DNA of 44,436 nt from a virus, in IMG/VR virus record IMGVR_UViG_3300040801_004946; one strand, written 5' to 3'. The notes under the pieces are model-generated. The model was given only the letters and a program-made list of their open reading frames with translations, did no database searches and was not told the DNA's origin. A program made the translations under genes and the position numbers. Of this stretch, positions 4,040 through 5,121 are shown piece after piece (the first letter of the stretch is position 1; every line of letters begins with the position of its first letter).

Positions 4040-4929
4040 TGAGTTTACCAGATTTTTCTACACATTTAAAGAAAATTGATAATACTAGAAATACTTATTA
4101 TTTTACAATCAATAAAGCAACTGTAACATCATCTTATAATTTGCCTAAGTTTTTATTTGATGCATGTAATGATGCGACATACATCATCCCGAAATCGTCG
4201 ATTAAAACAATAAAATATTTATTTACAGAAGCTTCAAGATATTCTGGAGATGGAAGATTTTTACAATATGATACAGCTGTCCGAGATGACTTAAAACTAA
4301 TTGGATATGAAATATTATATCGCGCAATTGGATTAATGACCGATTATCATAGATATCATTCTACATTGCTAATTGATAGATATGTTTTACGTAGATGTAT
4401 TATGTATCAATTAATCACTGATTATGTCGGTAGAGGTACGATTAGAAGATTGTCACATATTGATAAAATGAGTTTTGAATCTGATTCGAATAGATATCAA
4501 AATAATTTTTGGCTTGAACGAATAATTAGGAATGAAGAAGAATGTCAAGAAATAAAAATTAACAAATTGAAAAATTATATAGCTGATGATCAAGAAGGAT
4601 TTAATGTTATTGATTTAGTAGATCGAGATTATACTGCACAATTTAAAGTGATATTTTATTATACAACTCCAAAATACGAAAAACCAAAGAAAGAAGAAAC
4701 ATTTGAAGATTCGTTTATTGACGATATACCAGAAAAACATGTTAGAATTTATTTAGTTAATCATTGGCATATAGAAGATGCTTTAAGATTAGCTTTTAAT
4801 CAATTCTGTTATGATATTATTGGAAACGATAATTGGTTGGCTTTTCCATTTTCTGATTTTAAATACTCTATTCAATTACTTTTTGATGAAACTTTGATAA
4901 CTAATCCTAGAATATTATTAGATAAATAG
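4039..4929 (+). CDS. Hypothetical protein (296 aa)
   Basis: A long ORF, translationally coupled to 3602-4039. I recognised no domain. Confidence 0.45.
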   Translation: MSLPDFSTHLKKIDNTRNTYYFTINKATVTSSYNLPKFLFDACNDATYIIPKSSIKTIKYLFTEASRYSGDGRFLQYDTAVRDDLKLIGYEILYRAIGLMTDYHRYHSTLLIDRYVLRRCIMYQLITDYVGRGTIRRLSHIDKMSFESDSNRYQNNFWLERIIRNEEECQEIKINKLKNYIADDQEGFNVIDLVDRDYTAQFKVIFYYTTPKYEKPKKEETFEDSFIDDIPEKHVRIYLVNHWHIEDALRLAFNQFCYDIIGNDNWLAFPFSDFKYSIQLLFDETLITNPRILLDK

Positions 4930-5121
4930 GGTCCGGCGAAGGAGTTGCACCCTCTAAAGATATTCAACACTAAACGATAGGACTGTATACCTATTTAGAT
5001 CTCTCGATCAACTTAATATCGCCTGTAAACAGTGTATCAAGTCGTGACTCAACTTCACCGCGATTAGACTGAAATATCAATCTCTGTATGAGAACTGATC
5101 CTGCATCAGTACAACCGGACC
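4929..5121. ncRNA. Candidate structured ncRNA of unknown class (~190 nt). The strand is undetermined.
   Basis: This is a GC-richer (~45%) ORF-free island between two plus-strand genes. It begins immediately at the TAG stop of the upstream ORF. The termini form a perfect 7-bp helix (GGUCCGG at 4930-4936 with CCGGACC at 5115-5121). The 5' segment GGUCCGGCGAAGGAG loosely recalls the SRP-RNA domain IV motif. Confidence 0.3.

Follow-up and report, generated by a model that had tools for sequence, protein, structure and literature searches.

What occupies the gap between a 296-amino acid (aa) open reading frame (ORF) and the 125-aa gene that follows it in a 44,436-nucleotide (nt) stretch of viral DNA, IMG/VR virus record IMGVR_UViG_3300040801_004946? 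This stretch, the window to which all positions refer, is a fragment of a huge phage, a Mahaphage-like relative of the T4-type phages. The upstream ORF (4039-4929) terminates with TAG at 4927-4929, the element discussed here extends from 4930 to 5121, and the downstream gene (5200-5577) begins with an ATG at 5200. A first-pass annotation had suggested an unclassified structured RNA at this place. That suggestion stands in so far as the element very probably specifies a novel non-coding RNA; the strand that we assign to it is the minus strand, which the annotation had not considered. From its sequence and predicted fold, 4930-5121 is probably an independent minus-strand gene for a tRNA-shaped non-coding RNA of approximately 190 nt in a huge phage. 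By analogy with the species 1 RNA of phage T4, the product is likely to be a stable tRNA-like phage RNA that mimics tRNA and does not decode.

At 42.7% GC, compared with 29.0% for the window, the element ranks in the top 1.1% of all 192-nt windows. It holds no ORF of at least 40 aa, the sole overlap being a 41-aa ORF (5088-5213) at its edge, and all six of its frames are closed by a mixture of TAA, TAG and TGA codons. It is therefore coding under no recoded genetic code, and the possibility of an alternative code was ruled out on this ground. Neither a terminator in or beside the element nor an open frame explains the gap, and the earlier observation of a GC-rich, ORF-free interval is therefore confirmed, with a GC content slightly below the ~45% that had been given and a start at 4930, since 4929 is the last base of the TAG codon. 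There is no second copy of the element within the window, and a repeat, a diversity-generating retroelement template or a mobile element was rejected for this reason. Only four ORF-free gaps in the window are GC-rich, and the element is one of them; the other three hold an RNase P-like RNA and three aberrant tRNA-like genes, and the apparent gaps at both ends of the window are ORFs running off it. Given an AT-rich genome in which the other three gaps are RNA genes, an RNA gene is the default expectation for the fourth island.

The ends of the element are complementary. GGTCCGG (4930-4936) pairs fully with CCGGACC (5115-5121), as the first-pass annotation had noticed, and on the minus strand an added U.G pair extends this perfect 7-bp helix to 8 bp, with a pair probability of 0.97. 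A perfect 7-bp helix with arms at least 100 nt apart is found in 66% of dinucleotide shuffles of the 261-nt gap; one with at least six G/C pairs is found in 0 of 400. The minimum free energy (MFE) is -58.1 kcal/mol for the minus strand versus -46.7 kcal/mol for the plus strand, and ten G.U pairs of the consensus fold become C.A mismatches if the element is read on the plus strand. On the minus strand the closing helix resembles the acceptor stem of a tRNA, with GGUCCGGU (5114-5121) as its 5′ strand and GCCGGACC (4930-4937) as its 3′ strand. The whole candidate RNA (4930-5121, minus strand), delimited by the GC island, the minus-strand MFE and the RNAalifold consensus of two haplotypes, would be ~192 nt long, with a predicted 5′ end at 5121 (or 5120) and a predicted 3′ end near 4930.

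Flush with the 3′ strand of the acceptor lies a T-arm, GAGGG-UGCAACU-CCUUC, composed of a 5-bp stem and a 7-nt loop (4938-4954, minus strand; probability 0.87). If the T-stem is taken to abut position 66, G5121 becomes position -1 and C4930 position 73. The T-loop retains U54, C56, A57, A58 and the G53-C61 pair. A minihelix finder located the acceptor/T combination (GUCCGGU/GCCGGAC plus the flush T-arm) on the minus strand only, and when the helix was held fixed a flush T-arm appeared on either strand in 18 of 200,000 interior shuffles. This T-arm and that of the tRNA-like gene at 37396-37520 agree at 14 of 17 positions, and the 3′ strand, UCCUUC, is common to the element and all three tRNA-like genes of the window.

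RNAalifold, run on the two haplotypes described below, returned a cloverleaf-like, multibranched fold of ten helices. Counted in minus-strand nucleotides, the acceptor stem occupies 1-8/185-192, a hairpin in the position of the D-arm 12-28, an extra hairpin 29-41, a long-range helix 44-50/157-163 with a two-branch domain of ~105 nt inside it, and the T-arm 168-184. The D-position hairpin, ACUGAU-GCAGG-AUCAGU (5094-5110, minus strand, as are all features that follow), has 6 bp, GG in its loop and a probability of 0.85; the extra hairpin, UCUC-AUACA-GAGA (5081-5093), is present in both the single-sequence fold and the consensus. Where a tRNA has its anticodon stem, GAUAUUU (5072-5078) pairs with GAAUAUC (4959-4965) to form the 7-bp long-range helix. 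It is seen in the fold and chosen by RNAalifold, and a fold of the window alone that is constrained to contain it lies no more than 0.5 kcal/mol from the MFE. Its 3′ strand is followed by a 4-nt "variable loop," UUUA (4955-4958). In the consensus, the central domain comprises hairpin A (5021-5069), three stacked helices with a CACG cap loop, and stem B (4966-5020), which encloses the GNRA hairpin GAUC-GAGA-GAUC (4998-5009; probability 0.95) and a second hairpin (4977-4994) with a variable 8-nt loop. This domain shows weak similarity to the RNase P-like RNA or to the tandem tRNA-like genes of the window (p about 0.02-0.03). No predicted helix of the element carries a 7-nt anticodon-type loop with U33. 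The geometry recognized by RNase P is predicted to be present, namely a 12-13-bp acceptor/T stack with U at -2 and G at -1/+1.

Relatives of the locus were located through the 125-aa gene, of which two relatives exist. L024 (JGI 3300041021) and L025 (ENA ERZ25654850) represent one alternative haplotype of the whole RNA, and L023 (ENA ERZ23491835; 86% at the amino acid level in the 125-aa gene) reaches no further into the RNA than its first 22 nt; L001 has the same sequence as the window. Between the window and L024, the 3′ end of the 296-aa ORF differs at 32 of 271 positions (11.8%), the 125-aa gene by 7.4% and the sequence downstream of that gene by 10.6%. No difference is found in minus-strand nt 149-192 of the RNA (0/44), which include the T-arm and the acceptor 3′ strand, or in nt 1-41 (0/41), which hold the acceptor 5′ strand, the D-position hairpin and the extra hairpin, while the central domain (nt 42-148) differs at 12 of 107 positions (11.2%) and the promoter spacer (5122-5199) at 1 of 79. 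The tRNA-like core of acceptor, D-position hairpin and T-arm thus has 0 changes in 85 nt, with a probability of about 1e-4 at a 10% background (0.9^85). A recombination boundary cannot explain the invariant 44-nt block, because diverged sequence lies on both sides of it. Both strands of the acceptor stem are the same in L024/L025, where the 3′ strand has 0 substitutions, and the 7-bp helix joining the ends is retained; the D-position and extra hairpins are likewise unchanged. In L023, with surroundings 16-32% divergent at the nucleotide level, the acceptor 5′ strand and the linker are identical at 11 of 11 positions; the D-position hairpin has A to G at its first base and a loop that becomes UGGAG, with GG retained. 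The G5121:C4930 pair is kept in L024/L025, and G-1 is present also in L023.

None of the 12 differences in the central domain disrupts a pair of the consensus fold. Three preserve pairing (U.G to U-A in hairpin A, U.G to C-G and A-U to G.U in stem B), and the remainder fall in loops and linkers. In hairpin A there is this one pair-preserving change and three at unpaired positions; in stem B three changes cluster in the 8-nt loop of the hairpin at 4977-4994, and the GAGA loop becomes GAAA in L024 and so remains a GNRA loop. At random, 5.1 disruptions would be expected, and the probability of seeing none is 4.5e-4.

A promoter-like sequence, TATATTTACA (5148-5157, minus strand), is located 26 nt upstream of G5121 and is kept in L024 and L023. 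It resembles the Bacteroidetes -7 element TAnnTTTG. It occurs five times in the window, at 42777, 17470, 13239 and 5157 on the minus strand and at 32742 on the plus strand, and its 9-mer core, TATATTTAC, has five copies where 1.9 are expected. The four minus-strand copies are directly upstream of minus-strand genes, that is, two ORFs, the element and the RNase P-like RNA, the 5′ end of which lies 7 nt beyond the motif. A divergent promoter-like sequence, TATATTTG (5137-5144, plus strand), lies downstream of the element and would serve the 125-aa gene.

These features suggest how the RNA might be made and what it might do. Transcription would proceed from TATATTTACA at 5148-5157, starting about 20 nt upstream of G5121, and RNase P, recognizing the stacked acceptor and T-arm, would remove the ~20-nt leader. 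The phage's own RNase P-like RNA may carry out this 5′ processing, as well as that of the other tRNA-like RNAs. The 3′ end would then be trimmed and CCA added, since none is encoded. The conserved tRNA-like core could act as a handle for tRNA-binding enzymes or factors, and the faster-evolving, structure-preserving central domain could be the effector part. As modelled, the 8-bp stem ending in G-1:C73 makes charging by histidyl-tRNA synthetase (HisRS) conceivable.

The closest parallel is the species 1 RNA of T4 (rnaC, 139 nt; AF158101 70908-71046), which is encoded by the phage among its tRNA-related genes. There, a canonical T-arm (CCGGG-UUCGAAU-CCCGG) stands beside the closing stem, and large hairpins replace the D and anticodon arms; the element shares this architecture of a T-arm and closing stem around non-tRNA hairpins. 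There is no homology between the two, nhmmer, blastn and the covariance model R1 all being negative on the T4 locus (L007), and the element differs in being 50 nt longer, in its deviant T-loop UGCAACU, in its 8-bp acceptor and in standing alone rather than in a tRNA cluster. RNase P reportedly matures T4 rnaC along with the tRNAs; what this RNA does is, as far as is known, still a puzzle.

Compared with canonical tRNA (RF00005), the element has the 7+1-bp acceptor, the 5-bp T-stem and 7-nt loop abutting position 66, U at position 8, a GG-containing loop in the D position and a 4-nt variable loop. Unlike a tRNA, it has ~105 nt of extra structure in place of the anticodon arm, an extra hairpin after the D position, G55 and no encoded CCA. 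Bacterial tRNA-His is distinguished by a G-1:C73 pair, its chief determinant for HisRS, and the G5121:C4930 pair at the end of the 8-bp acceptor corresponds to it, although such a G:C extension has a chance of roughly 1/16 and the element lacks an anticodon loop and thus a GUG anticodon. With transfer-messenger RNA (tmRNA) it shares the acceptor and T-arm core and a long helix, at the position of the anticodon stem, leading to a large internal domain. It differs in having C-G (or U-A in the other register) instead of G3.U70 at 3:70, in lacking pseudoknots and a recognizable tag frame, in being about 190 nt long when tmRNAs usually far exceed 250 nt, and in giving no Rfam or ARAGORN tmRNA match. 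The 7-nt loop UGCAACU is the same as in the consensus of the tymovirus tRNA-like structure (TLS; RF00233), to which the match is not significant (10.9 bits, E=5.7); the TLS stands at the 3′ end of an RNA genome and has a pseudoknotted acceptor, neither of which applies to the element. In the bacterial Y-RNA-like YrlA the RNA ends form the Ro-binding stem and not an acceptor, which is not so in the element. The TLS and YrlA both engage tRNA enzymes through a mimic of the T-arm and acceptor, like the role proposed for the element.

Several results weigh against a tRNA-shaped RNA gene at this locus. The folding z-scores are modest (-2.2 for the minus strand and -1.7 for the plus strand, against shuffles), T-loop position 55 is G and not U, no CCA is encoded at the 3′ end, and no intrinsic terminator is found in or beside the element, including the 3′ side on the minus strand. 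The choice of the structure on both haplotypes inflates the probability of 4.5e-4; against the MFE structure of the window alone there are 3 disruptions (p = 0.13), and a structure-free stability test, in which the variant (MFE -61.5) was compared with random mutants, gave p = 0.054. No double-sided compensatory change distinguishes the two full haplotypes, and our confidence in a tRNA-shaped RNA is limited by there being only two of them. Because the invariant 5′ block runs straight on into the conserved promoter spacer, part of the constraint may act at the DNA level. Processing, charging and function of the RNA are, all three, what we infer.

The searches for known families and homologues weigh in the same direction. 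ARAGORN (default, with introns, at relaxed stringency with -ps90, and in tmRNA mode) did not call the element, and the RF00005 model gave no match to it at E<=10. No homologue was found among GenBank phages by blastn or among GTDB genomes. A search of IMG/VR with a 25-mer, an 18-mer and a 33-nt gapped pattern returned only an unrelated hairpin in 45% GC phages, and one of metagenome contigs with a 20-mer only an unrelated bacterial sequence of 62% GC; in the databases searched, the element thus has no homologue outside this phage lineage. The hairpin from IMG/VR, which is T-loop-like, corresponds to the exact 18-mer AGAGGGTGCAACTCCTTC in five 45% GC phage contigs (L008-L012, sample 3300045988), where it stands at a junction with upstream sequence that varies among the contigs.

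Rfam 15 at gathering score gave no match anywhere in the window, and scans at E<=1 (window) and two narrow scans at E<=10 gave only noise over the element. The covariance model R1, built from the two haplotypes, matched nothing but the element in 250,880 bases of DNA from relatives; nhmmer and blastn gave the same outcome, the three together covering 250-440 kb of such DNA, and no related RNA was found in the first 50 kb of LR756500 and LR756501. Two ways of restoring a tRNA by removing sequence were also rejected: single deletions of 80-134 nt gave 0 calls, and among 178,760 double deletions the 42 that were called were mutually inconsistent.

The other RNA genes of the window form the background to these results. 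The phage RNase P-like RNA (12925-13222, minus strand), 8 kb from the element, is a full-length match to RF00373 (48.7 bits, E=7.3e-13) that was overlooked by the default Rfam scan because its score is below gathering. It has an 11-bp P1, a CR-I-like stretch, GAGGAAGCUCAC, and a CR-V-like stretch, AACAGAAUCGUGGCUAC. An orthologue lies at ~181.3-181.5 kb of the 735,411-bp phage LR756501 (L021 24795-25045, minus strand), with both stretches conserved and compensatory changes in P2/P3; Rfam at E<=0.01 did not detect it. The literature searches brought up no account of an RNase P RNA encoded by a phage. A 43-nt stretch within the RNase P-like RNA, AAAAAGGGUUAAUAGUAGA..CCAGUAACCCUGA (13105-13147, minus strand), is 91% identical to an unannotated sequence upstream of a tRNA cluster in the T4-like Pectobacterium phage PM2 (L022 1501-1543). 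Phages of Bacillus, Proteus and Vibrio match it more weakly; a shared small RNA motif is one possible explanation and a mobile segment another.

Two tandem paralogous tRNA-like genes of ~110 nt are located at 17613-17722 and 17727-17835 (minus strand; Rfam tRNA model, 20.3 bits). Each has a 7-bp acceptor, a canonical T-loop, a short extra arm and 49 nt in place of the 17-nt anticodon arm. They share a conserved GAGAGUCGCGGCU and about 35 extra nt in the D/anticodon region, their inner hairpins differ in sequence with pairing kept, and their 3′ halves resemble the tRNA-Tyr of jumbo phages and Mahaphages. Default ARAGORN and Rfam at gathering score detected neither. The third gene (37396-37520, plus strand) has a normal cloverleaf with a GUC (Asp) anticodon, U at 37 and a variable-arm hairpin of ~52 nt; a similar long-variable-arm gene is present in LR756501 (L021 47550-47661, minus strand).

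In LR756501 the RNase P-like orthologue is situated within an island of 34 tRNA genes, which includes tRNA genes with 16-68-nt insertions and one with a 36-nt variable arm. From these findings we regard it as a trait of the lineage that aberrant tRNA-like genes accompany a phage RNase P-like RNA. In a 140-nt tRNA-Met-like gene of this phage (L021 17319-17460, minus strand), 68 nt are inserted after the D-arm. In a tRNA-Leu(UAA)-like gene of the island (L021 33745-34035, minus strand), the insert is ~215 nt long and highly structured (z = -4.0), follows the start of the anticodon loop, resembles a group I intron by its position and has no Rfam intron match at E<=0.01. The literature on tRNA introns in huge phages yielded nothing relevant.

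Could the element then be a tRNA gene in some other guise? A decaying and functionless relic, of which only the acceptor and T-arm are still recognizable, would agree with the missing anticodon arm, G55, the failure of the tRNA detectors and of the deletion scans to restore a consistent tRNA, and the orphan status of the element outside this lineage. We regard this as unlikely, for such a relic would have to hold 42.7% GC in a 29% GC genome and a core with 0/85 substitutions beside coding DNA that differs by 7-12%; moreover, pairing survives every change in the central domain, as does the GNRA loop, and three haplotypes share a well-placed promoter motif. It seems equally improbable that the transcript is the precursor of a decoding tRNA, for instance tRNA-His, from which the ~105-nt insert and the extra hairpin are removed by splicing or processing. 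The inserts of 16-68 and ~215 nt in the tRNA genes of LR756501, the insertions in the other tRNA-like genes of the window and the 8-bp stem with G:C at -1:73 speak for this explanation, but nowhere in the element is there a 7-nt anticodon-type loop with U33, once the insert is excised the 7-bp stem has a loop of 2 nt, and neither deletion scan yields a consistent tRNA. A group I intron was rejected in view of the size of the insert, 105 nt being about half the length of the smallest known group I introns, and there is no match to Intron_gpI or to any other Rfam intron or ribozyme family.

The remaining explanations take the element away from tRNA altogether. It begins flush with the stop codon of ORF 4039-4929, which has no other terminator, and its terminal helix also folds on the plus strand; a plus-strand 3′ untranslated region or terminator of that ORF, or a leader or regulator of gene 5200-5577, might be supposed. 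No U-tract follows the element, however, although hairpin-plus-U terminators occur elsewhere in the window (17513-17537), and the plus-strand fold is 11-14 kcal/mol weaker, with the T-arm and the ten G.U pairs mismatched. The position of TATATTTG between the element and the 125-aa gene argues against a leader of that gene, whose span the first-pass annotation gave as 5191-5577; with the structural signal on the opposite strand as well, we abandon that suggestion and consider a plus-strand element quite unlikely. Least credible is a known housekeeping RNA (signal recognition particle (SRP) RNA, 6S RNA or tmRNA) or a vault-RNA-like partner of the MVP-like gene nearby, to which we give very little probability. 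The size and the paired ends fit loosely, CUGUUUACAGG resembles part of 4.5S RNA, and eukaryotic vault RNAs carry a T-arm-like box B. The Rfam check found none of the proposed families at gathering score or E<=10, bacterial SRP (4.5S) RNA included; ARAGORN called no tmRNA, there is no G3.U70 pair, and the multibranched fold is not the long rod with a central bubble that characterizes 6S RNA.

The idea of a cage-associated RNA came from the MVP-like gene (918-3497, plus strand), which does end 1.43 kb before the element, close to the 1.4 kb that had been annotated. Its product has shoulder and vault repeat domains (Pfam MVP_shoulder, 8.8e-27, and Vault_3). No similar RNA island is found by MVP in the relatives checked (L002, L003, L004/L005, L013 and L014, with MVPs 58%-47% identical), model R1 was negative in 250 kb, and co-occurrence thus gives no support to a link with MVP. 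The family is very large: of 8,000 candidates scored, more than 6,000 metagenomic ones matched at E<=1e-20. Members are carried by huge-phage contigs of up to ~500 kb, many of them 300-500 kb long, and for one member a Paceibacterota metagenome-assembled genome is the labelled source. In relatives, MVP adjoins the T4-type portal and gp2 and is near a sigma-70 gene and ribosomal protein L12. The MVP of the window is 47% identical to a gene in LR756501; a 735-kb genome of matching length was assigned to the Mahaphage clade with a predicted Bacteroidetes host (PMC7162821). Synteny was of no help in tracing the element, whether through the 296-aa ORF, which is an ORFan, or through MVP, the closest relative of which is 58% identical and followed by genes not homologous to those of the window. 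Pfam, PHROG and NCBIfam gave no informative match for the neighbouring proteins, and no literature on MVP homologues in phages was found. All three stop codons are in use, and the genetic code is therefore the standard one.

We return to a tRNA-shaped RNA transcribed from the minus strand. Whether it belongs to a new class is a more doubtful matter. Such a class would consist of large tRNA-shaped RNAs matured by a phage RNase P-like ribozyme and carrying a fast-evolving effector domain of ~105 nt, a proposal that we offer only tentatively. We would be no bolder about its core, for which strict conservation of the acceptor, D and T parts and possibly a histidine identity conferred by G-1:C73 might be proposed. 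That such an RNA acts by mimicry of tRNA is speculation of a similar order; it might, for instance, be a decoy that diverts host defences targeting tRNAs, or an effector of the ribosome or a synthetase in the manner of tmRNA.

Huge phages are known for their large tRNA sets, tmRNAs and translation proteins. Their non-canonical RNAs are overlooked by standard tools, as in this 44-kb window, where Rfam at gathering score and default ARAGORN gave nothing. If the RNA is real and matured in the proposed way, the lineage carries a partly autonomous module for tRNA maturation, together with tRNA mimics, which is relevant to the takeover or protection of translation by giant phages. The element would then also be a second, larger example of the puzzle posed by T4 species 1 RNA.

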